The translations under genes were made by a program, and so were the position numbers. From an uncultured Pseudomonadota bacterium (lineage in GTDB: Bacteria > Pseudomonadota > Alphaproteobacteria > Rs-D84 > CACZYB01), in NCBI GenBank assembly GCA_902785275.1, contig CACZYB010000005.1, positions 2,213-66,212 of the forward strand: a stretch of 64,000 nucleotides of DNA, in the 5' to 3' direction. Shown piece by piece: positions 1 through 17,177 of this stretch (the stretch's first letter is position 1; each line of letters opens with the position of its first letter). The notes beneath the pieces are model-generated. The model saw only the letters and a list, made by a program, of their open reading frames with translations, searched no databases and had not been told where the DNA came from.

Positions 1-592
1 GTTTCATTTCAGGATACAATGTATTAACTGTTTTAATTAATATATCAAAATCCTTTACATTTACTCCATCAATATTTTTTTCATAGTCTTCTCTAGCACT
101 TTTTATATTCATATATTTAAATTTTGCAGGTAATGTTAAGACCCCTTTATATTTTAATAAAATTTTTCTTATATTTTCTAAAGTTAACCCACAAAATTCT
201 AAATAATTTTTATCTGGATAAACAATACCTTTTGAAGAATAAGTTTTTTCACCTATACTCAATAAATTGAAATTTTTTCTTTTTAAAATAAAATGTCTTC
301 TATATTGCATTAATCCTATATAATCAGGATTTCCTAACTTATCGTAATTTTTCCAAGCCCAATATAAAGCTGTTAACTCTGAATAATATCTATTTTTACA
401 AGAAATATTATCCCCTGTATTATCTTTTAACATATTATCAAAAAAAGAATCATTTTTATTTATTATGCCATCTTTTGATATATTTTTAGCATCAACCCCA
501 ACTTCTATTGGATAAATAAAATCAGAATCTAATAAAAATGCAGGTTTATGATATGCTACTAAAATTTTTACACTAGGTTGTTTTTTATTCAT
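1..592 (-). CDS. DUF4422-family glycosyltransferase (putative galactofuranosyltransferase), C-terminus cut by the window edge
   Basis: Minus-strand ORF starts at ATG 592-590 (MNKKQPSVKILVAYHKP...). It is a paralog of the 1712-2590 protein (shared GDNIS..NxxYxELTALYW motif). It lies 14 bp downstream of glf in the same operon. Confidence 0.5.
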   Translation of the reverse strand, partial: MNKKQPSVKILVAYHKPAFLLDSDFIYPIEVGVDAKNISKDGIINKNDSFFDNMLKDNTGDNISCKNRYYSELTALYWAWKNYDKLGNPDYIGLMQYRRHFILKRKNFNLLSIGEKTYSSKGIVYPDKNYLEFCGLTLENIRKILLKYKGVLTLPAKFKYMNIKSAREDYEKNIDGVNVKDFDILIKTVNTLYPEMK

Positions 593-606
593 TTTATTTA
601 TCCTCT

Positions 607-1710
607 TTATATTTCCATATTTAATACACGTTCGATTGCTTTATCCATATCGTAATATTTGTAATCCCCAAGACGGCCAAGGAACATTAATTTAGGATCT
701 TTCTTTGCTTCATCCAAATATTTTTGGTATAGAGCTAAATTTTCTTCATTTATTATTGGATAATAACGTTCATTTTTTCCACGAACAAATGCTTCTGGAT
801 ACTCAAATGAAACAATTGTTTTATCCGATTTATCATCCAAGAAATATTTATACTCTCCAATTCTTGTGAATGTATAATTTTCTGGATAATTGATTACAGA
901 ATTTGATTGATAATATTCTTTATCATATTTTTGAAAATCAAGATTGATACTTCTGTATGGAAGTTCACCAAACTTGTAATCAAAATACTCATCTATCGCA
1001 CCAGTATAATAAAGTTTTTCGTATTCAATACTGTTTTTTATATCATTAAATGATGTATTTAGTTTTACTTTTATTAATGGATGATCAAGCATTTTTTCCA
1101 TCATTTTTGTATATCCATTTAAAGGAATACCCTGATATTTGTTTTGGAAATATCTATCGTCACGACTTACATATACAGGAACACGACCTGTAACCAATGG
1201 ATCCAAATCTTCAGGTTTTACGCCCCATTGTTTTAATGTGTAATCAAGGAAAATTCTTTTATAAATATAATCAGCAAGGAAATTTAAATCCTTATCATCA
1301 CACTTTCTTAATTCAAGAATAGGAACCTTTTTACCAAAACCAAATTTTTCAACCAATTTTTGTTGTAATTTTTCAGAAAGACAACTTGGGAAAACCATTT
1401 CCATAGAATTAATATTAAATGGAACCGGAATTTCAATTCCTTCGATAACAGCCTTAACCTTGTGCATATATGGGTGCCACTTTGTAAATTTTGAAAGGAA
1501 ATTCCAAACATCTTTGTTATCAGTATGAAAAATATGTGTACCATACTTATGAACACAAATATTTTCATCATAATAATCATAACAATTTCCACCAATATGA
1601 TCTTTATTATCAATAATTAAAACTTCTTCATTTTTTTCCTCTGCAATACGACGAGCAAGAGTTATACCTGTTATACCACAACCGACAATAATGTTTTTTA
1701 CTTTATCCAT
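607..1710 (-). CDS. glf: UDP-galactopyranose mutase
   Basis: N-terminal FAD Rossmann motif IIVGCGITGITLARR, and full-length similarity to Glf flavoenzymes (367 aa). Confidence 0.85.
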   Translation of the reverse strand: MDKVKNIIVGCGITGITLARRIAEEKNEEVLIIDNKDHIGGNCYDYYDENICVHKYGTHIFHTDNKDVWNFLSKFTKWHPYMHKVKAVIEGIEIPVPFNINSMEMVFPSCLSEKLQQKLVEKFGFGKKVPILELRKCDDKDLNFLADYIYKRIFLDYTLKQWGVKPEDLDPLVTGRVPVYVSRDDRYFQNKYQGIPLNGYTKMMEKMLDHPLIKVKLNTSFNDIKNSIEYEKLYYTGAIDEYFDYKFGELPYRSINLDFQKYDKEYYQSNSVINYPENYTFTRIGEYKYFLDDKSDKTIVSFEYPEAFVRGKNERYYPIINEENLALYQKYLDEAKKDPKLMFLGRLGDYKYYDMDKAIERVLNMEI

Positions 1711-1711
1711 T

Positions 1712-2590
1712 TTATGACCAATACTCCTTTCTATAGCCTAAAAACGTTAATATTTTTCTTTTTATATTTTTTAATTTAAACTTTAAATATTGTTTTAAAT
1801 TTGAATTAATCCAAATAACTGGACAATATTTAATTTTTATATCCGTTGTTTGTAAAAGATATTCCGTATATATGTTGAATAATCTTTCACCAAGATATCC
1901 ATATACTCTTTTTTGAATTACATCTCGTTTTTTAACATCAGACTGAATCTTTTTTTCTACTTCAAACAATATACTAAAAAGCCAATTACAATACCCATCT
2001 ATTATTTGTTTCTTACCAATGAACATATTATACGAATGCATATAGTTTCCATTTAAAACAGCATCAACAGTACTTGACATTTCCGGATATTTATTTTTGA
2101 TAATTGATACAGCTAAATCTAAATCAGAAATTATATGACTTCGTTTATAATGATTATAAAGAGACAATTTTAACCCTGTTTTTTTAGGTAGAATTAAATC
2201 ATAATTTTTCATCAATTTATTAATATTATCTTTATCTATACAATATTTTCTAAGAAAATTTTTTGAAAATTTATGCAACAAAATTTCTTTTGAAGCTACT
2301 TTTTCTCTTAAATCAAAAAATCTTCTATAATGAAACAACCCAACTATATTTGACTTTACATTTTTATACATCCAATACAATGCTGTTAGTTCGTTATAGT
2401 TTTGATTTTTACTTGAAATATTATCACCTATGTCATCACCAATAATATTTAAATCCAAAGAAGAAAGAGCTTTTCCAACTTGAATAGGAAAAAGGATGTC
2501 ATTTTTAAAAAAATCAGAATTTTTGTGATAACAAATAAAAATATTTGTACCTTTAAAATTATTTACTAATTTTTTAAAAATTTTCCCCAT
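1712..2590 (-). CDS. DUF4422-family glycosyltransferase, usually partnered with glf (putative Galf transferase)
   Basis: 292 aa, motif IGDDIGDNISSKNQNYNELTALYWMYKN. Gaps to neighbours are 1-2 bp (operon). Confidence 0.55.
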   Translation of the reverse strand: MGKIFKKLVNNFKGTNIFICYHKNSDFFKNDILFPIQVGKALSSLDLNIIGDDIGDNISSKNQNYNELTALYWMYKNVKSNIVGLFHYRRFFDLREKVASKEILLHKFSKNFLRKYCIDKDNINKLMKNYDLILPKKTGLKLSLYNHYKRSHIISDLDLAVSIIKNKYPEMSSTVDAVLNGNYMHSYNMFIGKKQIIDGYCNWLFSILFEVEKKIQSDVKKRDVIQKRVYGYLGERLFNIYTEYLLQTTDIKIKYCPVIWINSNLKQYLKFKLKNIKRKILTFLGYRKEYWS

Positions 2591-2592
2591 AT

Positions 2593-3159
2593 TTATTTTA
2601 CTTTCAACTTTCTTCTTTTTATAAACATGTGCAAAGTGCCACTATTGACACCAAGCATTTTTGCAATCTCTGTAACTTTTACTCCACAAGAAAGTAATTG
2701 TTTTATTTCTGATTTTTTCTCATCAAGACCAGACTTCCCTGTACCAACAGGTCTTCCCCTAGATTTACCTTGTTTTAACAAATTCTTTTGTATCTGAGCA
2801 TTTTTAAGAGAAAAAATACCCTTATAAACTTTTAAACAAATATCGATATTTCCCATAAAGGAGGATTGTGAAACAGTATCAATTTCTAACTTTTCCTTTA
2901 CAGAATAAATTTTTAATTTACGTTCAGAAAATATCTTTAAAGCCAACATAATATCTTCAAATCTTGAACCGAGTATAGAAACATCGGAAATCATAATGTC
3001 ATTCTTTTTTACGGGACAAGATAAAATATTTTTATCAGTTGGAATTTTTTCAAATTTTATATCAGAAATCCCTAATTTTGTAGCATATCTCAAAATCATC
3101 TCTTTTTGCTCAGCAAGAGATGTGTATATGTTCGATTCTGTAATATACCCAGTAATCAT
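2593..3159 (-). CDS. Small serine-recombinase-family protein (resolvase/invertase fold) with degenerate catalytic motifs plus a C-terminal HTH
   Basis: N-terminus MITGYITESN aligns to GYxRVST but has T at the R8 position. The SRLGR box is replaced by SILGSR. The C-terminal HTH (TEIAKMLGVNSGTLHMFIKRR) is retained. Confidence 0.6.
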   Translation of the reverse strand: MITGYITESNIYTSLAEQKEMILRYATKLGISDIKFEKIPTDKNILSCPVKKNDIMISDVSILGSRFEDIMLALKIFSERKLKIYSVKEKLEIDTVSQSSFMGNIDICLKVYKGIFSLKNAQIQKNLLKQGKSRGRPVGTGKSGLDEKKSEIKQLLSCGVKVTEIAKMLGVNSGTLHMFIKRRKLKVK

Positions 3160-3213
3160 ACTCTTCTAAAACCTTTGTTTTCTGTAACTTTATAGAGATT
3201 TTCTCTCTACATA

Positions 3214-3346
3214 AACCAACGTCTATTTGATACATTTGTTTCAATATAATCCTAATAGGCAGAAAAGTCAATAAAATTCTAGGAATATAATCAAAAAATC
3301 AAGTACTTTCAATACACTCATAACACTATATCAAATAGACGTTGGT
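3214..3346. promoter_or_regulatory. Candidate invertible DNA switch: inverted repeats 3214-3232 and 3329-3346 (18/19 match) flank a roughly 96-bp segment. A third partial copy of the site lies at 3368-3382
   Basis: AACCAACGTCTATTTGATA is seen directly, and TATCAAATAGACGTTGGTC is its reverse complement. The core TAGACGTTGGTCTA is itself palindromic (TAGAC-4-GTCTA). The segment sits between two divergent serine recombinase genes. Confidence 0.5.
3243..3270 (-). promoter_or_regulatory. Sigma70-like promoter inside the invertible segment, currently pointing leftward into the invertase-GT-glf-GT operon
   Basis: Minus-strand reading gives TTGACT (3270-3265), a 17-nt spacer, then TATATT (3248-3243). 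Confidence 0.4.
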
Positions 3347-3466
3347 CTAGATGATATAGTATAACATCTAGACGTTGGTCTAGTTGATATAGTCGATTTT
3401 CATAGCAAAACACTGGCAAATTCTGCTAAATCTTATATCCGTAAAACACAAAAATAGGAGTAAAAA

Positions 3467-4054
3467 ATGATTTATGGATATACCAGAGTTTCAACTGAAC
3501 TACAAAACATCGAAAACCAACATCACGAAATTTTAACATTTGCAAATATGTATAAAATTAAAATAAATCAATGGGTTGATGAAGTAATTTCTTCAAGAAA
3601 ATCATTAAAGGAAAGACGACTTGGTAAACTCTTAAAACATCTCAAAAAAGGAGATATTTTGATTGCTTCGGAACTTTCAAGGCTTGGTAGAAATTTACTT
3701 GAAGTTATGGGAATTTTACAAAGCTGTTTAGAAAAAGGTTGCCAAATTTGGACCTTAAAAGAAAACTATAAACTTGGTGCGGACATTCAATCAAAAGTCC
3801 TTGCATTTGCTTTTTCATTGGCTGCAGAAATCGAACGACAACTTATTTCTCAACGCACAAAAGAGTCACTAAAAAGGGTAAAAGATGAAGGCAAACACCT
3901 TGGCAGACCATTTGGTCATTCATACAAAAAGCTTGCATCTAAACATGATAAAATCAAAGAATTATTGGAAAAAGATGTTTCCAAGACAGAGATTGCAAAA
4001 CTATTAAACTGCTCTTGGATAACTCTTCATCGGTATATACAAAAAGCGTTGTAA
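3467..4054 (+). CDS. Serine recombinase, Hin/Gin/resolvase family (canonical active-site motifs)
   Basis: MIYGYTRVSTELQ, DEVISSRK, GDILIASELSRLGRN, and a C-terminal HTH. There is an RBS, AGGAG, 8 nt upstream. Confidence 0.8.
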   Translation: MIYGYTRVSTELQNIENQHHEILTFANMYKIKINQWVDEVISSRKSLKERRLGKLLKHLKKGDILIASELSRLGRNLLEVMGILQSCLEKGCQIWTLKENYKLGADIQSKVLAFAFSLAAEIERQLISQRTKESLKRVKDEGKHLGRPFGHSYKKLASKHDKIKELLEKDVSKTEIAKLLNCSWITLHRYIQKAL

Positions 4055-4204
4055 AATAACCTTGTCCCCACATGGATACAAGATTGCGACATCATAAAAA
4101 AAGCAAACTCCTAAAACAGTTTTTGCAATATTTTTAAATTGTTATGAGAAGTTTTCACAAAATCCGAATTCTACATTTATATAAATGAAAATGTAGGAGA
4201 AAAA

Positions 4205-4363
4205 ATGACAAGTAGTTTTAATCAATTAAAAGAAATAATTAAATCTCAATATCCCGAGAATTCTTTTTCTGATTTTGAATTAGAAGAAGCAACAAAAAGG
4301 ATTATTCAATTTTTTACCATTGGAGCAAAAATGGTAGAATCTTGCGAAAAAAAATTAAAATAA
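4205..4363 (+). CDS. Hypothetical 52-aa protein (island cargo)
   Basis: AGGAGA RBS sits 6 nt upstream of the ATG. It is not in the ORF track (below 60 aa). No recognisable domain. Confidence 0.25.
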   Translation: MTSSFNQLKEIIKSQYPENSFSDFELEEATKRIIQFFTIGAKMVESCEKKLK

Positions 4364-4421
4364 TCGCTTACAAATCATTTTATTCCCGACATAATATTAA
4401 TTAAAAAAAGGGAGTTTAAAA

Positions 4422-5963
4422 ATGTCATATTCTTATTTAAAGAAAAATATAAAAACACAACCTATGCAAGCTGTATTATTTACAAGAGTTTCATCTAGAG
4501 AACAAGAAAGAGGAGACTCTATTGATGCTCAAATGAAGACGGTTAAAGATTATTGTATTCAACACAATATACCTATAATAAAGGAATATAAAATAACTGA
4601 ATCATCATCACATGGTGAAAGAAAAAAGTTTTATGAAATGATTAAATTCATAAAACAACAAAGTGGTAAAATATTAATTGTTGCAAACACTATTGACCGA
4701 ATTCAAAGAAGATTTAAGGAATATATATATTTAGACGAATTACGTCTTGAAAACAAAATTGAAATGTATTTTGTAAGAGAACATTTAACTATAAATTCAA
4801 AATCAAATAGTTATGAAATAGGAACTTGGACACAGGGTGTAATGTGGGCTCAACAATATGTTTTACAATCAAGTGATAATATTAAACGAGCAAATGAAGA
4901 AAGTCGTAATAAAGGAAGATGGTTACACATGGCTCCAATGGGTTATATGAATTATAGAGATGAAACAGGTTTAGCTATGGTTAAAATAGACCCAATAAAA
5001 GGACCACTTGTTAAAAGAGTTTTGGAAGAATATTCTACTGGAAACTATACATTATCAAGGCTTTTAGTATTTGCAAATAATATAGGATTAACTACAAGAC
5101 AAGGTAAAAAACTCAATTTAAAGACATTAGATAATATGATAAGAAATCCTTTTTATTACGGTATTATGAGAACTATTGATGTATTACGACCTCATACATG
5201 TGGAAATTTAATAAGTAAAGACTTATACGATAAAAACCAAGAAATATTGTCTGGTAAATCTAGGCAATTTTTAACTAAACAAGCAGATACATTCTTATTT
5301 AATGGATTATGCTTTTGTGCAACATGTGGTTGTATGATAAGTCAGGAAAGACATACAAAGAAAAATGGTAAGGCTTATACATATTTAAGATGTTGCCATC
5401 ATAAAGGTAATTGTAATCAACCAATAGTTAATGAAGAAGTAATACTTGACCAGATAAAAACAGAAGTTTTTGATAAATTTAAAGTAAATAACAAAATGCT
5501 TGAATTATTAAAGGCAGAAGTTAAGAAAAACATTGAAAAGGAATATTCTGAAACATTACTTATGAAAACACAGATACAAAAGAAGTTAGACGAAGTAGTA
5601 TATCAAAAGAGTAGGTGTGTTGATTTACTTATAAATAATACGATAGATAAGAAAGTTTATGATATGAAAATGAATGAACTAAACGATAGGGAAGTAAGTA
5701 TGAACTACAAACTAGCTTCTTTTGATACAGTAAATAGTGAGATAAATCAAATAGTTAATGGGGTTATAGATTTCGCAAACAATATGGGTAAATACTTTGA
5801 AAGTTCGGATTTTTCTTTAAAAAAGGAAATTTTACAAATTTTAATTCCGAACTCTTTATTGGATTCAAAAAAGTTAGTATTATCAATAACTAAACCATTC
5901 GATGCTATGCTGAAAAGTAAGGATTATGTAAAGTGGTGCGCCATAGGGGAGTCGAACCTCTAA
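4422..5963 (+). CDS. Large serine recombinase (integrase/transposase type)
   Basis: 513 aa. N-terminal resolvase catalytic domain (AVLFTRVSSREQ), a recombinase domain, then a Cys-rich zinc-ribbon region (CFCATCGC...CCHHKGNC) and a coiled-coil tail. Its 3' end overlaps the tRNA-Arg 3' end. Confidence 0.85.
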   Translation: MSYSYLKKNIKTQPMQAVLFTRVSSREQERGDSIDAQMKTVKDYCIQHNIPIIKEYKITESSSHGERKKFYEMIKFIKQQSGKILIVANTIDRIQRRFKEYIYLDELRLENKIEMYFVREHLTINSKSNSYEIGTWTQGVMWAQQYVLQSSDNIKRANEESRNKGRWLHMAPMGYMNYRDETGLAMVKIDPIKGPLVKRVLEEYSTGNYTLSRLLVFANNIGLTTRQGKKLNLKTLDNMIRNPFYYGIMRTIDVLRPHTCGNLISKDLYDKNQEILSGKSRQFLTKQADTFLFNGLCFCATCGCMISQERHTKKNGKAYTYLRCCHHKGNCNQPIVNEEVILDQIKTEVFDKFKVNNKMLELLKAEVKKNIEKEYSETLLMKTQIQKKLDEVVYQKSRCVDLLINNTIDKKVYDMKMNELNDREVSMNYKLASFDTVNSEINQIVNGVIDFANNMGKYFESSDFSLKKEILQILIPNSLLDSKKLVLSITKPFDAMLKSKDYVKWCAIGESNL

Positions 5964-6012
5964 CCTTCTGATCCGTAGTCAGATACTCTATCCAATTGAG
6001 CTAATGGCGCAA
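5936..6012 (-). tRNA. tRNA-Arg (anticodon ACG)
   Basis: The reverse complement reads GCGCCATTAGCTCAATTGGATAGAGTATCTGACTACGGATCAGAAGGTTAGAGGTTCGACTCCCCTATGGCGCACCA. It has a 7-bp acceptor stem, a GTTCGACTCC T-arm and an anticodon loop CTACGGA. Confidence 0.8.
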
Positions 6013-6136
6013 TTAAGAAAACAGTGCTATTATACACCCAAAAATCTAAATTTCAACAAAAATAATATTTTTCTTGTACGGCTTCAATAAATATGCTAAA
6101 ATTCCCACAGTAATCACATATGGAGAGGAGTTGAAA

Positions 6137-7162
6137 GTGTATAGACAAAATAGACGAATTGGAGGAGGTAAATCCCTTGGAAATTTAGGTAAATTCTTGC
6201 TTTCAGTGGCTTTGATGTCTTCTATTATAATAGGTGAGGGTGCCATAGCAGGAAGAAAAAAATCTTCAAATACTTCTCAATCAAGTAAAAGGTCAGGGTC
6301 CAGTCAAAAATCAAACTCTGTATCAAATAAATCCAGCAAAAGATCCGGTTCAAGTCAAAAGGCAACTTCTGTAAGTTCAACAAAAAGAGCAAATGTAACC
6401 CAAAGGGTTTCTGCTAGAATAAAGAAAATCAGTACCCCGGAAAATAACACAGAAAATTCATCGGAAAATACTTCTAAAACTGCATGCACATATGCTTGTC
6501 CTGTTTGTAAATCTAGTGCATCTGGTGCTAAAAATAGTTTTTCCAAAAAAGATGTGGAGAGTCTTCCTCTTTGTACTAATGGTTTTGAATCAGAATCTTA
6601 TGGTGTGAGTTTCGGAAGTGTTTTCAAAAATAAAACTTTTACATTTAATGAAGATAATTCTTATAAGCTTTCCGATTTAATAAATCTTAATAAAATACCA
6701 GATAATGCATCTTTGAATATTAGATATTCTGTTTGTGGAATGAAATTACTTACAGAAACTGAATTAAATGAACAAAAAAAACATCTTGCTCAAGGAGGTA
6801 GCTTTATGGTTGGCAGGTCTGATTTTATTACCTATGCCTTTGAACAAAATGATAGTAATTTTACCTCATATCATGTTTGTAGAGATATAAAAAGAAGTTC
6901 TGATATTACGATAAAAAAATCAGATTTAGATAAATATTATTTCTATGTTGATGGGGGTGATCCAAGAATGAGTGCGACAGCTTGTCCTAAAGGAAATAAT
7001 GGTATTAGAGGATACTTTTTTTACAATGGAGATGATGATAAACTTATTGATGAATTTGATAATTGGGTAGAGAAAAATACAAAGATTGTAAAAGATGAAG
7101 ATGGAGAAGATGTTGAATTAAGCCCAAATATTGATTTTTCATACGTAAAGTTTGTTAAATAA
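6137..7162 (+). CDS. Hypothetical secreted or membrane-anchored Cys- and Ser-rich protein with tandem SSKRSGSSQK repeats
   Basis: GGAGAGGAG RBS lies 6 nt before GTG 6137 (the longest ORF starts at 6074). There is an N-terminal hydrophobic anchor (LGKFLLSVALMSSIIIG), a low-complexity S/K repeat block and multiple Cys pairs (CTYACPVC, CPKG). Confidence 0.5.
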   Translation: MYRQNRRIGGGKSLGNLGKFLLSVALMSSIIIGEGAIAGRKKSSNTSQSSKRSGSSQKSNSVSNKSSKRSGSSQKATSVSSTKRANVTQRVSARIKKISTPENNTENSSENTSKTACTYACPVCKSSASGAKNSFSKKDVESLPLCTNGFESESYGVSFGSVFKNKTFTFNEDNSYKLSDLINLNKIPDNASLNIRYSVCGMKLLTETELNEQKKHLAQGGSFMVGRSDFITYAFEQNDSNFTSYHVCRDIKRSSDITIKKSDLDKYYFYVDGGDPRMSATACPKGNNGIRGYFFYNGDDDKLIDEFDNWVEKNTKIVKDEDGEDVELSPNIDFSYVKFVK

Positions 7163-7236: not shown

Positions 7237-8166
7237 CTATAATCTTGTCATCTTTGTGAATTTTTCAATACGTTTTTCCTTTGCCTGTTTAGGTGTTTTT
7301 AAAAGCTTTTTAAGCTCAGCAGAAATCGCTTCTTTTACATTTGCAATAGTCTGTTCCTTATCACGTTGAGCACCACCCACAGGTTCTTCGATAATATTAT
7401 CAATGATTCCAAGTTCAAGCAAGTCATGTGATGTCATCTTTAATGCCTTTGTCGCATCTTCTTTATGATCCTGACTTCTCCAAAGAATAGAAGCACATCC
7501 TTCCGGTGAAATAACCGAGTAAACTGAATTTTCAAGCATCATAACAGAGTTTGCCACAGCAACAGCTATCGCCCCACCAGAACCACCTTCACCAATCACA
7601 ACACAAATACTTGGAACATCCAAATCAAAACATTTCTGTATTGATGAAGCAATTGCCTGTGCCTGACCTCGTGCTTCGGCATCTGCACCAGGGAAAGCAC
7701 CAGCAGTATCAACCAAGAAAATAACAGGAAGCTTGAATCTGTTTGCAAGATCCATCAAACGAATTGCCTTTCTGTAACCTTCTGGTTTTGACATACCAAA
7801 GTTGTGTTTAAGACGTGTTTCTGTATCGTGACCTTTTTCTTGTCCAATAACCATAACAGGAGTATTGTTAAGATATCCCATGCCGCCGATAATCGCATTA
7901 TCATCAGCAAACATTCTGTCGCCAGAAAGTTCAATAAAGCCATCAATCATATTGTTGATATAGTCAATGGCATGTGGACGATCAGGGTGTCTTGCAACCT
8001 GTACACGATTCCATGACGAAAGATTAGAGTAAATTTTTTCTAACTCTTCATCTCTTTTTTCAGAAAGTTTTTTTATTTTTTTTGTATCGGGCTTCTTTTC
8101 GTCTTGAAGCTCTTTAATTTTTGCATCCAATTCTTTTATATCTTTTTCAAAATCTAAATAAATCAT
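7237..8166 (-). CDS. accA: Acetyl-CoA carboxylase carboxyltransferase subunit alpha
   Basis: 309 aa, conserved with AccA across the full length (LDFEKDIKELDAKI..., GGAGFPGADAEARGQA). Confidence 0.9.
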   Translation of the reverse strand: MIYLDFEKDIKELDAKIKELQDEKKPDTKKIKKLSEKRDEELEKIYSNLSSWNRVQVARHPDRPHAIDYINNMIDGFIELSGDRMFADDNAIIGGMGYLNNTPVMVIGQEKGHDTETRLKHNFGMSKPEGYRKAIRLMDLANRFKLPVIFLVDTAGAFPGADAEARGQAQAIASSIQKCFDLDVPSICVVIGEGGSGGAIAVAVANSVMMLENSVYSVISPEGCASILWRSQDHKEDATKALKMTSHDLLELGIIDNIIEEPVGGAQRDKEQTIANVKEAISAELKKLLKTPKQAKEKRIEKFTKMTRL

Positions 8167-8175
8167 TTTCGATTC

Positions 8176-9117
8176 CTATTTGTTGTGCATAAGCATTGTA
8201 AGTACGTTTGCCAAAGTTTCTTTTAAATCTTTTCTGTGAACAACGATATCAACCATTCCTTGATCCTTTAAATATTCCGCAGTCTGGAATTCAGGAGGAA
8301 GTTTTTGTTTAATTGTTTGTTCAATAACACGTTTTCCAGCAAAACCAATAAGTGCTCCTTTTTCTGCAATATGAATATCTCCAAGCATTGCAAATGATGC
8401 GGAAACACCACCCATTGTTGGGTTTGCAAATATTACGATATAAGGAAGCCCTGCATCGCGAACTTTGTTTATTGCCATAGTTGTTCTTGCCATTTGCATA
8501 AGTGATAACATACTTTCTTGCATTCTTGCACCACCAGAAGCAGGAATTGCAACCAAAGCAGCATTCTTTTTTACAGCCAATTCAGAAGCTTTGATAATTG
8601 CTTCACCAACGTATGTTCCCATACTTCCACCCATAAATTCAAAATTAAAGGCAAAAATAACAGTATCTTGACCACCAACTTTACCATATGCAACAGCAAT
8701 AGCATCATCAGCCTTAGTTGCACTTCTATATTGAGAAAGTCTGTCTTTATACTTTTTTAAATCCTTAAAATTCAATGGATCTTCTTTTACTTTGTTAAGT
8801 TCAACTTTTGTATATTTGCCATCATCAAAAAGACTTTCAAATCTGTCATCAATTTGTAAAAAAAGATGATAGTCACATTTTGTGCAAACATTAAGATGAT
8901 TATGCAAATCTTTTCTATACATCAATGTCCCGCATTTAGGGCATGGAAGCCACATATTTTCAGGAACATCCTTTATTTTTGAAAACATTGTTTTTATTTT
9001 TGGTCGTAAGACACTATTAAGCCAATTCAATTTAAAGCTCCTTTTTCTTTTTAAATGATCTTGTTTTGTTATAAACTTTGTTTGCCAATACCCCAGCAAT
9101 AAATGAAATAAATGCAA
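8176..9117 (-). CDS. accD: Acetyl-CoA carboxylase carboxyltransferase subunit beta. The start is uncertain, probably internal near 9030-8988
   Basis: N-terminal zinc ribbon CPKCGTLMY...CTKCDYH plus a carboxyltransferase domain. The longest ORF overlaps the upstream small membrane gene. Confidence 0.85.
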   Translation of the reverse strand: MHLFHLLLGYWQTKFITKQDHLKRKRSFKLNWLNSVLRPKIKTMFSKIKDVPENMWLPCPKCGTLMYRKDLHNHLNVCTKCDYHLFLQIDDRFESLFDDGKYTKVELNKVKEDPLNFKDLKKYKDRLSQYRSATKADDAIAVAYGKVGGQDTVIFAFNFEFMGGSMGTYVGEAIIKASELAVKKNAALVAIPASGGARMQESMLSLMQMARTTMAINKVRDAGLPYIVIFANPTMGGVSASFAMLGDIHIAEKGALIGFAGKRVIEQTIKQKLPPEFQTAEYLKDQGMVDIVVHRKDLKETLANVLTMLMHNK

Positions 9118-9268
9118 GTATTATTGTATAAAGGTATACAGGCATTTCAATTCCCATTTTTATAGGAAAAACATTAAGTACTACAGGATTCTTATTTTCT
9201 GTTGAAAACAAGAATATTAAGAAAAATAGACCCCCGAGGAAAATCCAGTTTATTAAATATTTTATCAT
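9032..9268 (-). CDS. Small two-TM inner membrane protein (LapA/DUF1049-like)
   Basis: 78 aa with two hydrophobic helices and a basic C-terminus. It sits immediately upstream of accD. Confidence 0.35.
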   Translation of the reverse strand: MIKYLINWIFLGGLFFLIFLFSTENKNPVVLNVFPIKMGIEMPVYLYTIILAFISFIAGVLANKVYNKTRSFKKKKEL

Positions 9269-9278
9269 TTTTTTCTTT

Positions 9279-9563
9279 TTATATCTTGTTATTTATCTTT
9301 TCTGCAAGAAGTTTACCAGCTTTAAACTTTACAGAAACTCTTTCTGGAAGGTTGATTTTTGCGCCACCTTTAGGGTTGCTTGCCATTTTAGGAGCAAGTT
9401 TTTTAGGAGAGAATACCCCAAAACCCCTAAGTTCAATTCTGTGGCCATCAGCCAAAGATGATGAAATTTTATCAGTTAATATATCAACAATCTTTTCAAT
9501 ATCACGAATTAAAAGATTACCTTTTTTTTGATATATAAGTTTTATAATATCACTTCTAGTCAT
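9279..9563 (-). CDS. Nucleoid-associated protein of the HU/IHF family (IHF-like)
   Basis: 94 aa, RIELRGFGVF and the beta-arm motif SVKFKAGK. Confidence 0.85.
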   Translation of the reverse strand: MTRSDIIKLIYQKKGNLLIRDIEKIVDILTDKISSSLADGHRIELRGFGVFSPKKLAPKMASNPKGGAKINLPERVSVKFKAGKLLAEKINNKI

Positions 9564-9633
9564 TTTTTTTCCTAATCTAAGGTTTGTTCATGCAATATTA
9601 AAGCAATTATTTTTAGTTTTTTCAAGTACTTTA

Positions 9634-10722
9634 TTAACCCATCGCACTTTGAACCTGATTTTGCATATCAAATACGCCTAAAAGAACCCATGCAATAACA
9701 CCAGAAACAAGCAAAAGAGCAAAGGAATTCAAAATACCGGCTTCCTTTTTTATATTTGCAATACTTGATTCAAGATATTCTGTTGCAACACCGTTCAAAG
9801 CTTCTTCAAAATTATCAAGTTCTGAATAAATTTCCAAATCACCAATAAGTTCATCTTCTGGGAAATGCATATTACTCTTTTTCAATGCAGTTCCAAGGTT
9901 ATCACCGTTTTTAATAAACATTAATGCTTTATCAATTCTTTCTTTCAAGTAAGGGTTTGCATTCTGACGAAGAGATTGCATAGATCTTGCAATAGGTGTT
10001 CCAGATTCGACCAATGCAGCCAAACTCATAAGCCAAGACACGCCACTGAACATTCTGTAAAGAGACCAAGGTGGCATTTTATCAAATGTTACACGTAGTG
10101 GACCTGTGAAGTTTGAAAATGAAAAATAAATTGCACCTATAACTCCCGCCAAAGCAAGAGGAAATGTCCACCAATAAACTCTAACAAATCCTGATAATGC
10201 CACCAAACTTTTTGCACTTCCTGTCCATTGGGCATTTTTTGCAAATTCCAAAAGAGGAGGAACCATATATATACCAACACCAACAACGATAACCATACTA
10301 AGTATCATCATCATAACAGGGTAAGTAACCGCACTAACCAATGGTTGTATAATTCTGTTTGAACCTTCGGAAACCTTAATAACGTTAATCAACGCTTTTT
10401 CCAACTTTGACACATCACCAACAGAAAGCATCAATTTTTCACGCATAGGAGCCCAACCTTCAATAGCTGATGAGAAAGGAAGACCTTTTTCCAATTCTTT
10501 TGACCAAGCAGCAACAGCAATAGCCATAGGTTCATCAACATTCTGGCCATCTTTTGACTCAATCATCCATATACGATCAAGTGCATCCATCAATGTAAAT
10601 CTGTTTCTTAAAAGCGCAGCCAATTTATAATAAATTTGAAGACGTTTTTCATTGTTCATCAACACCATAATTTGTGAAGCTTTTAATAACAATTCATTCT
10701 TTGGAATCCTTTTTTCAGCCAT
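9634..10722 (-). CDS. Type II secretion / type IV pilus inner-membrane platform protein (GspF/PilC family; TcpE/PilR-like)
   Basis: 362 aa, polytopic, GspF-type fold. It is adjacent to the ATPase. Confidence 0.75.
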   Translation of the reverse strand: MAEKRIPKNELLLKASQIMVLMNNEKRLQIYYKLAALLRNRFTLMDALDRIWMIESKDGQNVDEPMAIAVAAWSKELEKGLPFSSAIEGWAPMREKLMLSVGDVSKLEKALINVIKVSEGSNRIIQPLVSAVTYPVMMMILSMVIVVGVGIYMVPPLLEFAKNAQWTGSAKSLVALSGFVRVYWWTFPLALAGVIGAIYFSFSNFTGPLRVTFDKMPPWSLYRMFSGVSWLMSLAALVESGTPIARSMQSLRQNANPYLKERIDKALMFIKNGDNLGTALKKSNMHFPEDELIGDLEIYSELDNFEEALNGVATEYLESSIANIKKEAGILNSFALLLVSGVIAWVLLGVFDMQNQVQSAMG

Positions 10723-10733
10723 AAATCAACCTC

Positions 10734-12347
10734 CTAGTAAACAGCATCGGTATCAAGCATACCGCACCATCTTTCTACTTCATCAACCGCAATTATACCT
10801 CTAAGCATTTTTCCAATAGCATCTTCCTTAAGAGTTCTTCCACTAAGTTCATTAGTCCAATAATGAACTGCCTCACCTTTACTTCCAGAAACAAGTTTTT
10901 CCAAAAACTTTGCATCAGGAATAATAATTTCTGCAGCAACAATACGACCAACAATACCTTTTTTATTACAAAATGGACAACCAGGTCCCTTTATATAGGA
11001 TTGCTCTATACCATATTTACCCAAAGCTCTTTCCAATCTTGCATATGCAGGATGTTCAGGATGATCCTTGATTGGTTGACGACATTTAGGGCAAAGCTTT
11101 TTGAAAAGTCGTTGAGATAACAATCCACGGATAAGTTCAGGATCCTTTAATTTAAATGCATCAATTCCCATATCCAAAAGTCTGTTAACAATAGCAGGTG
11201 CAGAGTTAGCGTGAAGTGTTGACCAAACATTGTGTCCAGAAAGAGCTGCCTTAAAGGTCAACTCTGCAGAAGAAAGGGTTCTGATTTCTCCGACCATAAT
11301 TGCATCAGGGTCAGAACGAAGAGATGCAGCCAAAGCAAGGTTAAACGCATTTTCCTTTTCTTCTTCTGTTGTCGCATTGGTAACAGGCATTTGTCTTGCA
11401 CCTGGAATAGGGTATTCAGGAGGATCTTCCACTGTTATAAGATTAAGTTCATAATTCTTTTCCTTAAGCATCTTAATCATAACACGCTGTAATGTTGTTG
11501 ATTTACCAGAACCGGTAGGACCAGCGATTATACAAAGTCCTGTTGGAAAAGAACGCATTCTTAAAAGCTTATCATCTTCGTAATCCGAAAATCCTAATTC
11601 TTTTAGGTTATCTGCAGAAGATGTTGAAGAATTTGCATACAAAAGTCGCATAACAAGGTATCTTGTACCGAATGCAATAGGGTTAAACTGAAGTCGAATA
11701 GAAAGCACGTTTTCAGGCAAATATAAATCCTTTTCACCACGAAGAGGTGTACTACCTAATTTCTGTCCGGCCTGGAATTCATTCTGTGCATAGTTTGAAT
11801 CTGAAATATCGGCAGATGCGAAAACAGAACGAACGAAAGCTTCTCCCCAATTTTTATCATATTCAAGAATTGTTTGCATACTACCTGCAATTCTGAACAT
11901 AACAGTAGTATGGTCCGCAACAACAACGTGAATATCGGAAACCCTTTGTTCAGAAGCGCGATAAATAATATCAACGAAATCCTTCTGCATTTGGTTGTTC
12001 GACATTGCGTCTTCTTTTGATACAGTTGAAGTATCTGTTTTTATCGCAGTCGAATAAATGGTATTTAACAAACTCATCGCAACATAAGTTGGTCTGTTAA
12101 TAACACCACCTTTCTTTCTAACCAAAGACTGGAAGCTTAAAACTCTACCATCAAATTTATGAGTGTTAGATACAAGAAATGTTCCATCAGAAAACAATGC
12201 AAGCAAACTTTGTGTATCTGTACCAACAGGAAATTTTCCGTTTGGACCAGATTCTAACTTATTATTATTCGCAAAAAGTTTTGCAGCAGCATCCTTAGGA
12301 TTCATACCTTCATAAGGATTTTCTTGCTCTAATACTTCATCACTCAT
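10734..12347 (-). CDS. Type II/IV secretion assembly ATPase (GspE/PilB family; TcpT/PilQ-like)
   Basis: Walker A GPTGSGKSTT, Asp/His boxes and a C-terminal tetracysteine CPKC...CPFC. Confidence 0.85.
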   Translation of the reverse strand: MSDEVLEQENPYEGMNPKDAAAKLFANNNKLESGPNGKFPVGTDTQSLLALFSDGTFLVSNTHKFDGRVLSFQSLVRKKGGVINRPTYVAMSLLNTIYSTAIKTDTSTVSKEDAMSNNQMQKDFVDIIYRASEQRVSDIHVVVADHTTVMFRIAGSMQTILEYDKNWGEAFVRSVFASADISDSNYAQNEFQAGQKLGSTPLRGEKDLYLPENVLSIRLQFNPIAFGTRYLVMRLLYANSSTSSADNLKELGFSDYEDDKLLRMRSFPTGLCIIAGPTGSGKSTTLQRVMIKMLKEKNYELNLITVEDPPEYPIPGARQMPVTNATTEEEKENAFNLALAASLRSDPDAIMVGEIRTLSSAELTFKAALSGHNVWSTLHANSAPAIVNRLLDMGIDAFKLKDPELIRGLLSQRLFKKLCPKCRQPIKDHPEHPAYARLERALGKYGIEQSYIKGPGCPFCNKKGIVGRIVAAEIIIPDAKFLEKLVSGSKGEAVHYWTNELSGRTLKEDAIGKMLRGIIAVDEVERWCGMLDTDAVY

Positions 12348-12357
12348 TTTTCATACC

Positions 12358-13278
12358 TTAGTTAAGATTCATAACTTTTATCTTACTACCATTCTTCAAA
12401 AGAACACTTGTTCCTCTGATATCTTCAACAACCCATTGATCAATAACAGAACCTTTCTTAACTTTGAAAGTAGTTTTCTTTTCTGTGTTTTCAACGTTTG
12501 CAACCAAGTTACCACCAGCACCAATAATAGATTTAACAGTATACTTTTCTTCAAAAGGAGTTTCTTCCTTTTCTTTTTGAGCAATACCAGCACCCAAACC
12601 ATTACTTTGGATAGATTTACCTGTTGATAAGCTCATAAGAGTAGTTAAAGCCTTAACATCTTCTGGATTTGTTAAATCAGCATTATTTATCTTTTCAAGG
12701 AGCTTTTTGTTTATTTCTTCTTCTTGATTCTTTTTCTTCTTTTCTTCAGCATCCTTTTCATCTTGTTGCTTTTGCTTCTTTATTTCTTCAGCCAACTTTC
12801 TTTCTTGTTCTTGTTGTTTAATCTTTCTCTGTCTTGCATCTTCTTCAGCACCAGCAGCAATTTTTTTCTTTTCAGCCTTTTGTTTTTCCAAATCAAGCTT
12901 AAGTTTTCCTTGCTCAATTTTAAGTTTCATAAGAGCATTTTCTCTTTCAATATTTGAAATCTGTTGGAAAGTATTTGCAGTAATATCATCTAACTTATAC
13001 ATTCCATCAGGATCATCCAAACCTTTTTCATTTTCATAAAGTTCATCTGAACCATATCCTTCTTCAAATTCTTCATCTGAAATTTCTGGCTCTTCTGAAG
13101 TTTCTTCACTAGCTTCATCATTTTCTTCTGCGCCTGCATCATCGCTATTATCTTCTTCTTCGATATATTCTTCTTCATCAGATTCGCTTTGAGCAAAAAC
13201 CTTTGTTGAATTATTAAAAGTAAATGCAAAAGAAAGCATAATAAGCAATAATAATAATTTATTTGAATTTTGTTTCAT
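12358..13278 (-). CDS. Periplasmic secretin-interacting protein (PilP/GspC-like C-terminal beta domain). Signal peptide, acidic low-complexity region and a coiled coil
   Basis: The signal peptide, D/E-rich stretch, KQK coiled coil and C-terminal IIGAGGNLVANVEN...GSVIDQWVVEDIRGTSVLL resemble a PilP/GspC HR domain. Confidence 0.4.
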   Translation of the reverse strand: MKQNSNKLLLLLIMLSFAFTFNNSTKVFAQSESDEEEYIEEEDNSDDAGAEENDEASEETSEEPEISDEEFEEGYGSDELYENEKGLDDPDGMYKLDDITANTFQQISNIERENALMKLKIEQGKLKLDLEKQKAEKKKIAAGAEEDARQRKIKQQEQERKLAEEIKKQKQQDEKDAEEKKKKNQEEEINKKLLEKINNADLTNPEDVKALTTLMSLSTGKSIQSNGLGAGIAQKEKEETPFEEKYTVKSIIGAGGNLVANVENTEKKTTFKVKKGSVIDQWVVEDIRGTSVLLKNGSKIKVMNLN

Positions 13279-13319
13279 TTTTCCCTCTCCTTACAAAATT
13301 TTACTTTGTTATACTAACA

Positions 13320-14804
13320 CTATTTTTTTTCATTCGTAGTTCCAACAGGTGCCGGAGCAACATTTGTACCATTTGCACCGCCAGTAGGTGTTTGTGCCGC
13401 AACTGGCGTATTTGTTACTGGAACGTTTATCCCAGTTCCAGCAGTATTTCCTGCATTCTGCTGTTCAGTAGTTGCAGGTTTATTTTTTTCTTCTTCAGCT
13501 TTTTTCTTTGCTTCTTCATCTTTTTTAATTTGTTCAGGTGTAAGTTCATAAACTTTACCAGCATATTCCCAATAATGCTTTTTTTCATTCCAAACGATAG
13601 AGTCTATTTCAACACCGTTCACATCTTTCAAAAGCTTTACCCAGCTTAAAGGAAGTCTGTAAGCAACATCTGTGAATTTAAAACTTGTGTATGGATAATT
13701 TCCTGAATATGAAGGATTTTTTGGATCCTTTACCACAGTAGTCTTATTTTCAAGCTTTAATCCAGAAATCTTCAAAGAATGAAATATACCGTTCAATTTC
13801 TTTTGAATTTCCATCTTTTGTAAATTTGGCTTTGAAGATATATGCTTCATAGAAGGTATAGGTAATATACCAAGTATAGTATTATAAGCACTATCACTTG
13901 CCGAAAGTTTCATATTTTTAGATAGAGCGCCAAATTTTTGTGCTTCAAAAATCCAACCGGCACTACCATAAGTTCTCTTCCAAACAGAAGATAATTGCTT
14001 TTCCTTACATGTCGAATCTTGCAAATTCCAACCAGGAACAGTTGCAGTAGAATTAACAATAAGAACAGTACACTTTTTGGCAAAATCCTCTGGATCAACC
14101 AACATCTCCCATGGAGCAGGAGGTGGAGGAGGTGGAGGTGGAGGAGGCATAGATTTTCTTATCTGTTCCAATCTCTTCTGTTCTAAAAGCTTTCTTCTAA
14201 GTTCAGCCTTTTCCTTTTGTTTTGATTGATATTGCCATGCAACAAAACCAACCAAAGCAAGTATTAAAATGTTTTTTGTAAGATTACTATCAAGCTTTCT
14301 CAAATCTATGGCTTGACCACGAGCAAGCAAGTCTTCTGCAGACATTTCTGTGGTTTCATCAATTCCCCAGCTTGCAGGAGCAATCTTATATCCCCAATCT
14401 GGGATAGAAAGCATAGATTCGAATGCTTCTTTTGCATCATTTTCATCAGTGTAAATAGTATCTTCTTCGGAAAGAATAAGGTTATTTCTGATAGTTATAA
14501 ACCACCAACCTTCTTTAACCTTAAATACACATATTGCAGATGATTTGTCTCTAAGTGCATTAGCTATACCAGAAGCACCTGATGGCATACCAGCCTTTTG
14601 ACCATAGGATGTGTAACCCAAACCGTATTGAGTAGCAGCACCCTTTTTCAAACAGTAAAGATTTGCATTAGTAACAACAGTCTGAATAGTTGCCTTAATT
14701 TCTTTAAGGTAATTTTTTTCATCCTGCACAGGCTGCCAGAACAAACCTACCGCATAGGTTTTACCAGCAACTTCAATGGTTTTTATTTCTTTACTTTTAG
14801 CCAA
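13320..14804 (-). CDS. Bitopic inner-membrane assembly protein (PilO of the R64 thin pilus / GspL-like architecture) with a Pro11 tract
   Basis: A cytoplasmic domain of about 170 aa, a single TM (ILILALVGFVAWQY), a coiled coil, PPPPPPPPPPP, and a periplasmic domain with a T/N/G-rich tail. Confidence 0.35.
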   Translation of the reverse strand: MAKSKEIKTIEVAGKTYAVGLFWQPVQDEKNYLKEIKATIQTVVTNANLYCLKKGAATQYGLGYTSYGQKAGMPSGASGIANALRDKSSAICVFKVKEGWWFITIRNNLILSEEDTIYTDENDAKEAFESMLSIPDWGYKIAPASWGIDETTEMSAEDLLARGQAIDLRKLDSNLTKNILILALVGFVAWQYQSKQKEKAELRRKLLEQKRLEQIRKSMPPPPPPPPPPAPWEMLVDPEDFAKKCTVLIVNSTATVPGWNLQDSTCKEKQLSSVWKRTYGSAGWIFEAQKFGALSKNMKLSASDSAYNTILGILPIPSMKHISSKPNLQKMEIQKKLNGIFHSLKISGLKLENKTTVVKDPKNPSYSGNYPYTSFKFTDVAYRLPLSWVKLLKDVNGVEIDSIVWNEKKHYWEYAGKVYELTPEQIKKDEEAKKKAEEEKNKPATTEQQNAGNTAGTGINVPVTNTPVAAQTPTGGANGTNVAPAPVGTTNEKK

Positions 14805-14827
14805 TTTTACCCCTCAATAAAATTTTT

Positions 14828-16387
14828 TTAGTAGCTTGGCATACCCCACTCGCTATTAGAATTTTCTTCTGTATCAAGTGGTGATGTTATCACTTGAGGT
14901 GTTAACATAACAACCAAGATTTCACGTTGTGTTTCTGTCTTTTGAGAACCACCAACATAAGTAAATGTATTTGAACCCAAACCATTACTTGAATTAGAGT
15001 TAGAAATCTTTTCAAATCCAGTAAGCACAGCTGTTTGACCAGATTCCATAACAATTTCTTGCATAAAGTTTCTTTGGGCAATCTTTGGAAGTTGAACCGC
15101 TGTACTTCCGATAACCTTGTTTTCAACTTCAATAAGTTCCTTCAAAGACATATTGAACATAAGCATCAACTTACCATTTTCAAGAATATTTGGCATAAGT
15201 TGCATACTAAATCCAACAGATTCTTCTTGTGGAGTAACTTCTGTTGTTGAATTTGTGTTTTCAGTCAAAGTAGAAATACTACTGATGTACTTGAATGTCT
15301 GGATGTTGTTAATTGGAACAACACGATTGTTTCTAGCAGTAACAACAGCAGATGTAACAAGTGAAGTTTTACCTTGACTTGACAAAGCTTTAATTGCAGC
15401 AGATGTTGGATTATCTTCTGTTCCAGCCCACTTTGACTTTGCTCCTTCAAGTATAGCAAATGACAAACCATCAGCAGCAGTATTAGATGTCGATGTTTTC
15501 AATACATAGCTTGAGTCGAACAAAGCACTTAAATTCAAACCAAAATTATTATCCTTTGAAACAGAAACTTGAAGAACTTTAACTGTAATAGCAACTTGCT
15601 TTACAAATCTTCTGTTTTGTTCTTTTATATATGATTCTACTTTCTGTAATGTCTTAGGAGAAGCAGTTACAGTAACCGAACTTGTAGAAGGGGACATCTT
15701 AACTTCACCTTCTTTTACTATTGTCTTAAGAACATCAGCCATTTCAGCCCATTCTTTTATAGCAGCAGTAGTAGATAAAGTAGCCGAACCTTCACTTCCA
15801 GATGAAATACTTGAAGTATATGATGCTTCAGTAGCCAATGTATAAACTACAAAAGTTCTTGTCTTGAATTTATAGAACACAATCTTTCCACCTTCGTATG
15901 CCCAACTTAAGTTAGCCTTTAATGCCAACATATTCAAAAGGCCAGAAAGTGAACCTGTATATGAAACACTCATATCTTTTAAGTCATCTTTTTTGATTGA
16001 GTCTTCTATTTGTACAGAAATACCAGTTAAATAGAATATCTGGTTTGTAATTTCATTGAAAGAAACTTCTGATTCGGTCATCAATGTGATACCTTCATCA
16101 GATTCGAATTGTTTTGGAAGAGGATCATTATGTTCTGCAACGAAACTTGAATCACCAAGCCAAATATCATCACTTACAGAAATAATATCCTTATTTATTG
16201 GTTTTCCAGGAACTTTTGCTCTGTCCAAAGCATCTTGAGTAGTATCAAAATCATTAGAAACGGAACTTGACACATCCTGAGCCATTTCTTTGTTATATAA
16301 ACATCCAGTTAAAGCACCGCTCAAAGCAAGAACTGTTAAAAGAACTTTTTTACTAATTTGCATCATTTTCCTCCAATGTTTTAACAA
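14828..16387 (-). CDS. Secretin (GspD/PilQ/TcpC-PilN family) outer-membrane channel
   Basis: 519 aa with a signal peptide. The C-terminal secretin domain ends in ...REILVVMLTPQVI. The S/T-rich N-domains are typical of type IVb secretins. Confidence 0.8.
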   Translation of the reverse strand: MLKHWRKMMQISKKVLLTVLALSGALTGCLYNKEMAQDVSSSVSNDFDTTQDALDRAKVPGKPINKDIISVSDDIWLGDSSFVAEHNDPLPKQFESDEGITLMTESEVSFNEITNQIFYLTGISVQIEDSIKKDDLKDMSVSYTGSLSGLLNMLALKANLSWAYEGGKIVFYKFKTRTFVVYTLATEASYTSSISSGSEGSATLSTTAAIKEWAEMADVLKTIVKEGEVKMSPSTSSVTVTASPKTLQKVESYIKEQNRRFVKQVAITVKVLQVSVSKDNNFGLNLSALFDSSYVLKTSTSNTAADGLSFAILEGAKSKWAGTEDNPTSAAIKALSSQGKTSLVTSAVVTARNNRVVPINNIQTFKYISSISTLTENTNSTTEVTPQEESVGFSMQLMPNILENGKLMLMFNMSLKELIEVENKVIGSTAVQLPKIAQRNFMQEIVMESGQTAVLTGFEKISNSNSSNGLGSNTFTYVGGSQKTETQREILVVMLTPQVITSPLDTEENSNSEWGMPSY

Positions 16388-17078: not shown

Positions 17079-17177
17079 AACTCTCCACCTTTTCTATAAA
17101 TTTTTTTTCTTTCCTAGCTATAAGACTATATTTAAAATTTTGTTTTTGCAACAAAAATAATAAAAAGTTAAATATTT

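Follow-up and report, generated by a model that had tools for sequence, protein, structure and literature searches.

Mpi-type promoter inversion of surface glycans is a hallmark of gut Bacteroides and shapes immune evasion, phage resistance, and colonization. Hin/Gin-type systems invert segments of 1–4 kb, need a Fis-bound enhancer, and have the invertase gene inside or abutting the segment, and resolution at res sites needs two res copies in direct repeat on one replicon, with their subsites all oriented alike. A consensus ARACGTWCGT for the Mpi-type repeat is said to come from Coyne et al. 2003; we left this unconfirmed motif unused and worked with the published repeat of a Bacteroides uniformis capsule inverton instead. 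That inverton is a 174-nt inversion with 27-nt repeats, of which the repeat reads CGTCCATTAAACGAACGTTTAAAAAAC and the core TAAAC-GAAC-GTTTA (PMC12691588). In Bacteroides fragilis, mpi targets 13 distant regions in trans, and the extracellular polysaccharide switch IVp-I of Tsr19 (BF2766) has extra inverted-repeat copies whose number is reported to fall as transcription rises (PMC4747536). Large inverton surveys exist (PMC11602134, PMC11892184). Here, we analyzed 64,000 nt of contig CACZYB010000005.1 from an uncultured gut alphaproteobacterium (hereafter the window). Its 307-bp spacer at 3160-3466, which separates divergent genes at 2593-3159 (-) and 3467-4054 (+), is very probably a Bacteroides Mpi-type serine-recombinase invertible promoter that switches an operon of UDP-galactopyranose mutase (glf) and glycosyltransferase genes. 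In the literature that we searched, neither dead Mpi paralogues nor Mpi-type switches of gut Alphaproteobacteria were described, and we found no paper describing this switch; the sequence-only reading of the same DNA had not known it to be described for the lineage either.

The spacer holds three sites, one of them inverted

The features on which the argument rests are given below. Comparison loci are cited by L number and homologous proteins by P number.

2593..3159, minus strand: Mpi paralogue ("pseudo-recombinase"), 188 aa, first gene of the putatively switched operon
3205..3235: left recombination site L (predicted), crossover center AA at 3218-3219
3220..3341: segment predicted to invert by L x R1, center to center; contains the promoter matches
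3271..3243, minus strand: promoter match P1, TTGACT-17-TATATT, 10/12 consensus matches, facing the operon
3312..3284, minus strand: second promoter-like match P2, TTGAAA-17-TATATT, conserved less than P1
3325..3359: right recombination site R1 (predicted), center TT at 3342-3343, 16-nt palindromic arms around GTTG
3360..3392: second full right site R2 (predicted), 33 bp from R1, center TT at 3375-3376
3467..4054, plus strand: small serine DNA invertase, 195 aa, probably Mpi family, C-terminal helix-turn-helix (HTH)

The three sites are related and share the core TAGAC-GTTG-GTCTA. Site L reads CTCTACATAAAC-CAAC-GTCTATTTGATACAT, R1 reads ACTATATCAAATAGAC-GTTG-GTCTAGATGATATAGT, and R2 reads TATAACATCTAGAC-GTTG-GTCTAGTTGATATAG. 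The inner half of L (CGTCTATTTGATA) is consensus-like and its outer half (GGTTTATGTAGAGAG, bottom strand) is degenerate. R1 is the best partner for L, with inverted-repeat arms at 3212-3232 and 3329-3349 that are 21 nt each, 20/21 complementary, and 96 nt apart. The 19-nt inverted repeat noticed earlier is therefore real and slightly longer than proposed. Its core had been called a palindrome; it consists instead of 5-bp arms, TAGAC and GTCTA, around an asymmetric GTTG. Each R site is a palindrome whose arms, 14-16 nt long, flank this non-palindromic tetranucleotide. The central TT of R1 and R2, which is AA in L, gives the sites polarity, so that L lies inverted relative to both. What had been taken for a third half-copy at 3368-3382 is the complete site R2; R1 (3327-3359) and R2 are 33-nt direct repeats with 88% identity. 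Distances from center to center are 124 bp for L-R1, 157 bp for L-R2, and 33 bp for R1-R2.

These sites are not expected by chance. At up to three mismatches the 21-mer occurs three times in the window, each time in the spacer (0.00 expected from 100 shuffles), and the 14-mer core at up to two mismatches likewise has three copies, all in the spacer, with 0.16 expected. The position of R2 is also kept in relatives, at -97/-98 relative to the invertase ATG. Taken together, inverted repeats bound a short segment with an outward-reading promoter-like match beside an operon, as in an inverton. A flip by L x R1 is predicted to create the left junction CATAAACCAACGTCTATTTGATATAGTGTTATGAG and the right junction GAAACAAATGTATCAAATAGACGTTGGTCTAGATG, and one by L x R2 the junction CATAAACCAACGTCTAGATGTTATACTATATC and the left junction CATAAACCAACGTCTAGATGTTATACTATATCATC; these sequences could be used to read ON/OFF ratios of such organisms from existing metagenomes. 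No further site pairs, which might have pointed to a regulon, were found in the window or in the relatives' loci and flanks examined, and an Rfam scan of 2500-4500 returned nothing relevant. We dropped one idea, that the likeness of GTTTRTGTAGAGAG (outer half of L in the window) to the inner half of L in L003 records a rearrangement, as an over-reading of a shared binding consensus.

The right-hand gene encodes a probable Mpi-family invertase

The invertase has the catalytic domain, with its Ser and Arg residues, and the C-terminal HTH of a small serine recombinase. Pfam Resolvase (PF00239) matches residues 2-143 at 6e-30 and HTH_7 matches at 1.3e-4. The catalytic motifs RVS, SRLGR, and ExER..RT are intact, and GYTRVST, SRLGR, and AEIERQLISQRT align with Gin, which is also the best solved-structure match (E 1.4e-12). 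Among NCBIfam models the best family is NF009949 (master DNA invertase Mpi family) at 266.6 bits and E 1.3e-79, over residues 1-193 of the protein and positions 1-195 of the 203 in the model. NCBI names the homologues P0041 (87% identical) and P0115 (82%) Mpi family; the records behind them are MAGs (metagenome-assembled genomes) labeled "bacterium" and "Alphaproteobacteria bacterium." With these labels already in place, the Mpi-family annotation of the protein is not new. The relatives of the invertase are uncultured Alphaproteobacteria MAGs from human (including Hadza), ruminant, and rabbit gut samples, and a scan of viral contigs gave no relative.

A group of human-gut loci of the "Azospirillum sp. 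51_20" type (about 25 contigs; L022-L046, L006, L007) carries an Mpi-like gene 68% identical to the window invertase. Its upstream region is GC-rich, has no adjacent inverted-repeat pair, and shows one arrangement. Either the invertase of this group is idle or its targets lie elsewhere, perhaps far from the gene.

Comparison with Bacteroides Mpi and other recombinase systems

The likeness to B. fragilis Mpi and to the capsule promoters of gut Bacteroides covers the enzyme, which belongs to the same protein family by its best NCBIfam model in a full-length match, as well as a short promoter segment between inverted repeats, surface-glycan cargo, a gut habitat, and an invertase gene outside the segment. 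It extends to the sites. The window core matches the reverse complement of the B. uniformis repeat at 11/14 positions, and the site of the relative L016/L061 matches the B. uniformis repeat at 14/14, the shared pattern being TARAC-NNNN-GTYTA. The switch is most probably a member of the Mpi/Bacteroides invertible-promoter class.

There are clear differences as well. The host is an uncultured alphaproteobacterium of ~32% GC and not a member of the Bacteroidota, and the switch lies directly upstream of the invertase gene, which it faces in one state. The promoter is sigma-70-like, where Bacteroides has the TAnnTTTG type, a dead Mpi paralogue takes the place of UpxY/UpxZ at the head of the operon, and there are three sites in place of two. 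Judging by sequence, what is new here is the lineage, the position beside the invertase gene, the three sites, and the dead paralogue as operon leader. That the same enzyme family and site type occur in uncultured gut Alphaproteobacteria suggests spread or exchange of the strategy between phyla that live in the gut niche.

Like the window locus, the Tsr19 switch adjoins its own invertase gene, but Tsr19 belongs to the tyrosine recombinases and the window enzyme to the serine recombinases. By analogy with its extra repeat copies, the hairpin potential of R1-R2 may allow graded expression at the window locus. Hin, Gin, Cin, and Pin belong to the same superfamily, use imperfect palindromic sites with an asymmetric 2-bp center, and set promoter or gene orientation by inversion. 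However, the segment here is only 124-157 bp, and the ATCAAA motif of the half-site, as read from the sequence, is 2 bp further from the center than in hix. No enhancer is evident from the sequence. The architecture had been assigned to both the Hin/Gin and the Bacteroides types; of the two, Bacteroides Mpi is the closer model, with ~124 bp between centers and the invertase gene outside the segment, and the switch differs from Hin/Gin systems in size and layout. The res regions of Tn3, gamma-delta, and Sin are alike in that several recombinase dimer sites cluster in a divergent intergenic region. A Tn3-type res reading was rejected, with one site cluster in the window, L inverted to R1 and R2, and inversion seen in orthologues.

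Related loci carry the segment in both orientations

At least eight MAG lineages of gut Alphaproteobacteria, at 59-90% protein identity, have a pair of inverted repeats with 95-130 bp between them whose end lies at about -98 relative to the ATG of the orthologue. Both orientations are seen for the orthologue of 75% identity, which is represented by 12 near-identical human-gut contigs with perfect 26-bp repeats and a 107-bp interior. Ten of the 12 carry the interior one way, and two, L049 (97.7 kb) and L057 (121 kb), carry its reverse complement (105/107) between the same flanks. Furthermore, contigs L019, L020, L056, and L077 begin at the right repeat, which is how assemblies behave when two orientations coexist.

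In the closest long-contig relative, L072/L073 (Mpi 90% identical), a single L and a single R site are present, and TTGACT-17-TAAAAT points toward the invertase. When the window is flipped by the predicted L x R1 exchange, it aligns with L072 from the left junction to the ATG (score 130), and the left junction is identical over 30 nt; the window sequence as found aligns from R2 rightward only. For the L072 interior alone, the reverse complement scores 41 against 18 for the forward strand, and shuffles score 20 ± 2.8 with a maximum of 33. The nearest relative thus carries the segment reversed, the outcome that the sequence-only reading had suggested looking for in related genomes. Similarity of the interior to L003, L004, L021, and L066 was barely above shuffles, and we did not rely on it.

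Strains closer to the window show where the exchanges fall. The same-species strain L079 (Mpi P0001, 99% identical) shares the window sequence without change as far as the center of L and again from the center of R2 on. Between these centers it has a diverged cassette with a different center (CACC/GGTG) and a promoter facing left. This identity stops at both centers, and the polymorphism is therefore bounded exactly by the two outer crossover points. In L080, a 33-bp tandem site lies to the left of the segment and the promoter still faces left, a state that agrees half-site for half-site with the one predicted when the window undergoes L x R2 and then R1 x R2. L070 is arranged as in the window, and its L matches R2 over 20 nt. 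The central tetranucleotide varies among close loci (GTTG, GGTG, GTTC), and the central dinucleotide matches between partners in 9/9, as would be expected if strand exchange needs identical overlaps.

The promoter faces the invertase in L072, L066, L074, L003, L004, and L021, and loci with other cargo mostly face the invertase. Across 23 contigs of the P0014 species, with four places listed, a single orientation was seen. The scaffold L078 belongs to the window's species (Mpi 99%) and agrees with L079 to the right of a point in the inner half of site L. Positions 1-34 of L078 (CACATCATATATGGTTAGAATATATTAAGTAGAA) match no compared sequence, and the break falls 7 nt inside the half-site, off the crossover center; this start may come from a misjoin or mark a junction to some unseen locus.

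Promoter matches and predicted transcripts of the two states

The only promoter-like matches upstream of the left operon are those inside the segment. P1 is the leftward TTGACT-17-TATATT that had been proposed earlier, now joined by the second leftward match P2. Among relatives, TTGACT-17-TAnAAT is conserved in either orientation. No usable promoter match lies between L and the left gene, and the stretch from R2 to the invertase ATG has no promoter-like match on the plus strand.

It is uncertain whether the flipped promoter drives the invertase gene, because R1-R2 would form a strong hairpin in the transcript. Site L is weakly structured in the leftward transcript (-12.7 kcal/mol), and the R1-R2 pair in the rightward transcript folds to -31.4 kcal/mol (z = -6). 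In L048 (2906-2947) and other loci of the 75% group, the right 26-bp repeat together with its flanks forms a 12-pair hairpin followed by TTGTCTTTTT on the invertase-directed strand. The right repeat and its T-run score as an intrinsic terminator in this group. The flipped promoter may be insulated from the invertase gene rather than driving its expression.

A model for the switch, and its alternatives

We propose that the invertase binds as dimers to the three sites of ~30 bp, with L facing R1 and R2 in inverted orientation. L would synapse with R1 (or R2), and a 2-bp staggered cut with strand exchange at the asymmetric center (TT versus AA) would follow. Exchange between L and R1 would flip 124 bp, and exchange between L and R2 would flip 157 bp. 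In the sequenced state, P1, and perhaps P2, would transcribe leftward from about 3236 through the weakly structured L into the operon. The ON transcript would cover the dead paralogue, two DUF4422 transferases, glf, and further glycosyltransferases, and a galactofuranose-containing surface glycan would presumably be made. After inversion the operon would be left without a promoter (OFF), and the promoter would aim at the invertase gene through the R1-R2 pair, possibly attenuated. With three sites, four states would be possible, in which the promoter is separated from its target by either one site or two. The earlier claim of an invertible promoter that switches the glf operon and is flipped by the adjacent invertase is thus supported by the Mpi-family enzyme, the Bacteroides-like sites, and the presence of both orientations in orthologues.

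Several points weigh against this model. Exact-protein look-ups for both flanking genes did not find the opposite orientation in the window's own strain: its four assemblies are identical in this region, L001, L064, and L065 agreeing with the window, and the operon is ON in 4/4. The Logan assembly of run ERR3275099 is continuous across the switch, so a minority orientation, if present in that run, is too rare to break the assembly graph. All five independent strains with the left dead paralogue (the window, L070, L071, L079, and L080) are also ON. These loci may be locked; selection, the small sample, or locking by the paralogue could account for the bias. Additionally, a segment of 124 bp is short for a serine invertase, although Bacteroides invertons as short as 174 nt are on record. 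Overall, promoter-like matches are no more frequent in this AT-rich DNA than chance predicts (11 found, 8.7 expected from shuffles), and the invertase scores 5 bits under the curated cut-off of NF009949 (272 bits).

The same uniform ON states, of the own-strain assemblies and of the strains with the dead paralogue, would suit a formerly active switch that is now frozen ON, either with the dead paralogue occupying the sites or with the invertase barely expressed while the promoter faces away. The lack of a promoter-like match in the stretch from R2 to the invertase ATG would fit as well, and the more distant L081 seems to be without a right site. We nevertheless consider freezing unlikely. The invertase open reading frame (ORF) and its catalytic motifs are intact, and the three sites keep matched centers and consensus halves. 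The tandem site stands on either side of the segment in the pseudo-recombinase clade (L070 versus L080), implying recent exchanges, and consensus assemblies report the majority orientation only.

Two further explanations would do without inversion by this enzyme. The three sites might be operators or res-like accessory sites through which the recombinase or the dead paralogue represses the divergent genes. Three dimer-binding sites between divergent genes recall the established case of Tn3 res between tnpA and tnpR, and the recombinase gene is closely preceded by R1 and R2, both of them nearly perfect palindromes. Yet orthologous segments occur both ways, with the nearest relative inverted, L is inverted to R1 and R2, their matched asymmetric centers co-vary, and there is no second res copy in the window, so we regard repression without inversion as very improbable. 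Regulatory binding at the sites in addition to inversion may well occur. Alternatively, another enzyme could perform the inversion with the small recombinase as a bystander, and a candidate is at hand in a 513-aa large serine recombinase (4422-5963) encoded 370 bp downstream of the invertase gene. This seems to us the least credible of all, as L066, L072, and L074 have the same sites and switch without a large recombinase at that position, and the sites always accompany the Mpi-like gene, at a constant position of about -98. An Mpi-type invertible promoter flipped by the adjacent invertase therefore remains our preferred explanation of the spacer.

The left-hand gene is a dead Mpi paralogue

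Two serine-recombinase genes had been read on either side of the spacer. That description suits the right-hand one; the left-hand one is resolvase-like and catalytically dead. Its product is 30% identical to the invertase (E 7e-18) and has Mpi as its best NCBIfam match (48 bits), with 16.9 bits against Pfam Resolvase, under the 23.3 cut-off. RVS has become TES, SRLGR has become SILGS, and EIERQLISQRT has become KVYKGIFSLKN, so that the Arg of RVS, both Arg of SRLGR, and the E-helix residues that were acidic or Arg are lost. Across the family of this gene the catalytic Arg residues are lost in 9/9 clusters, and three of the nine have another residue in place of the Ser; the protein does not keep the full catalytic set of Ser and Arg residues of a small serine recombinase. 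These losses rule out the idea that it is a second active invertase.

What the protein keeps is the resolvase fold, the E-helix, the GRP arm, and the HTH. A new motif, LKIYKGIFSLRN, is conserved together with the GRP arm and HTH down to 39% identity within the family. The AlphaFold (AF2) model, at a pLDDT (predicted local distance difference test) of 78.5, finds its best PDB matches over its length in the Tn3, Sin, and gamma-delta resolvases, with the Tn3 site III and Sin regulatory complexes as the top fold matches. Because the catalytic residues are lost family-wide while the fold, GRP arm, and HTH are kept, we read the left gene, on sequence and model, as a conserved, catalytically dead, predicted DNA-binding derivative of the invertase. 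Non-catalytic recombinase subunits that play an architectural role at accessory sites offer a possible analogy.

A dead paralogue also heads a GT2/CTP-transferase/GT1 operon in L082, where no invertase adjoins it, and thus behaves as a glycan-operon leader gene. In L081 (3776-4000; GCA_965315125.1), a dead paralogue of 52% identity is divergent from a gene for a 197-aa resolvase; there is a left-type half-site, CATAAACCAACG, only, with no clear right site, and this locus may be a decayed switch.

It is possible, although we hold it only tentatively, that the dead paralogue, made only in the ON state, binds Mpi sites or pairs with Mpi subunits and so locks or biases the orientation or silences other loci. 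Combined with a promoter that alternates between cargo and invertase, and with three sites and four states, this would be a self-regulating toggle undescribed for Mpi systems. If so, the paralogue would give the switch a memory, in a role analogous to that of UpxZ or FimE, with the recombinase itself as the raw material. How inverton orientation bias and memory are set is a long-standing question, and the conserved dead paralogue gives a testable way into it.

Operon, neighborhood, and cargo in relatives

The genes of the left operon are tightly packed behind the dead paralogue, and within the window they comprise:

1712..2590, minus strand: DUF4422 glycosyltransferase-like gene (1.5e-73), stop 2 nt from the pseudo-recombinase gene
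607..1710, minus strand: UDP-galactopyranose mutase (glf), GLF 2.4e-73
1..592, minus strand: further DUF4422 gene, 3' part, cut by the window start

A GT1 glycosyltransferase gene continues the operon on the parent contig (L001 gene table). The left operon (window 1-3159) has a GC content of 25.7%, in a window of 32%, and the neighboring housekeeping genes at 7237-20000, which include accA, accD, and type IV pilus/type II secretion system genes, are at ~33.7%. The difference between operon and neighbors suggests that the glycan-operon cargo was acquired horizontally.

Other cargo stands behind the switch in relatives. It fronts a Stealth-family gene behind a dead paralogue in L071, RgpF in L005, and a sulfatase-family enzyme in L012; in L066, L072, and L074 it fronts lipobox surface lipoproteins beside SlipAM or LpoB genes. 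In L021, the gene in this position encodes a C5 DNA methylase of the Dcm type (273-1172 (-)). The group at 75% identity, in which both orientations occur, has an Eco57I-type methylase followed by a helicase-like gene (L048 681-2777 (-) and downstream); in L048 the start of the longest ORF overlaps the left repeat. The methylase and restriction-modification loci are candidate phase-variable restriction-modification systems (phasevarions) in gut Alphaproteobacteria. The cargo set in relatives is the usual phase-variable repertoire.

Between the invertase gene and accA, the region 4205-7162 holds three ORFs at a GC content of 28.9%: one of 52 aa, the 513-aa large serine recombinase (Resolvase + Recombinase + Zn_ribbon_recom), and a Ser-rich one of 362 aa without a Pfam match. 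The same position is taken by HAD hydrolase and CTP-transferase genes in L066 and L074 and by other genes in L072. The region looks like a small strain-specific insertion or integrative element.

The rumen MAG contig CACXFL010000103.1 has two copies of the invertase, L008 (5691-18266) and L009 (21637-34212). Their upstream switch regions of 420 bp are identical and lie in opposite orientation, ~15 kb apart, which reflects either a large inverted duplication or an assembly artefact.

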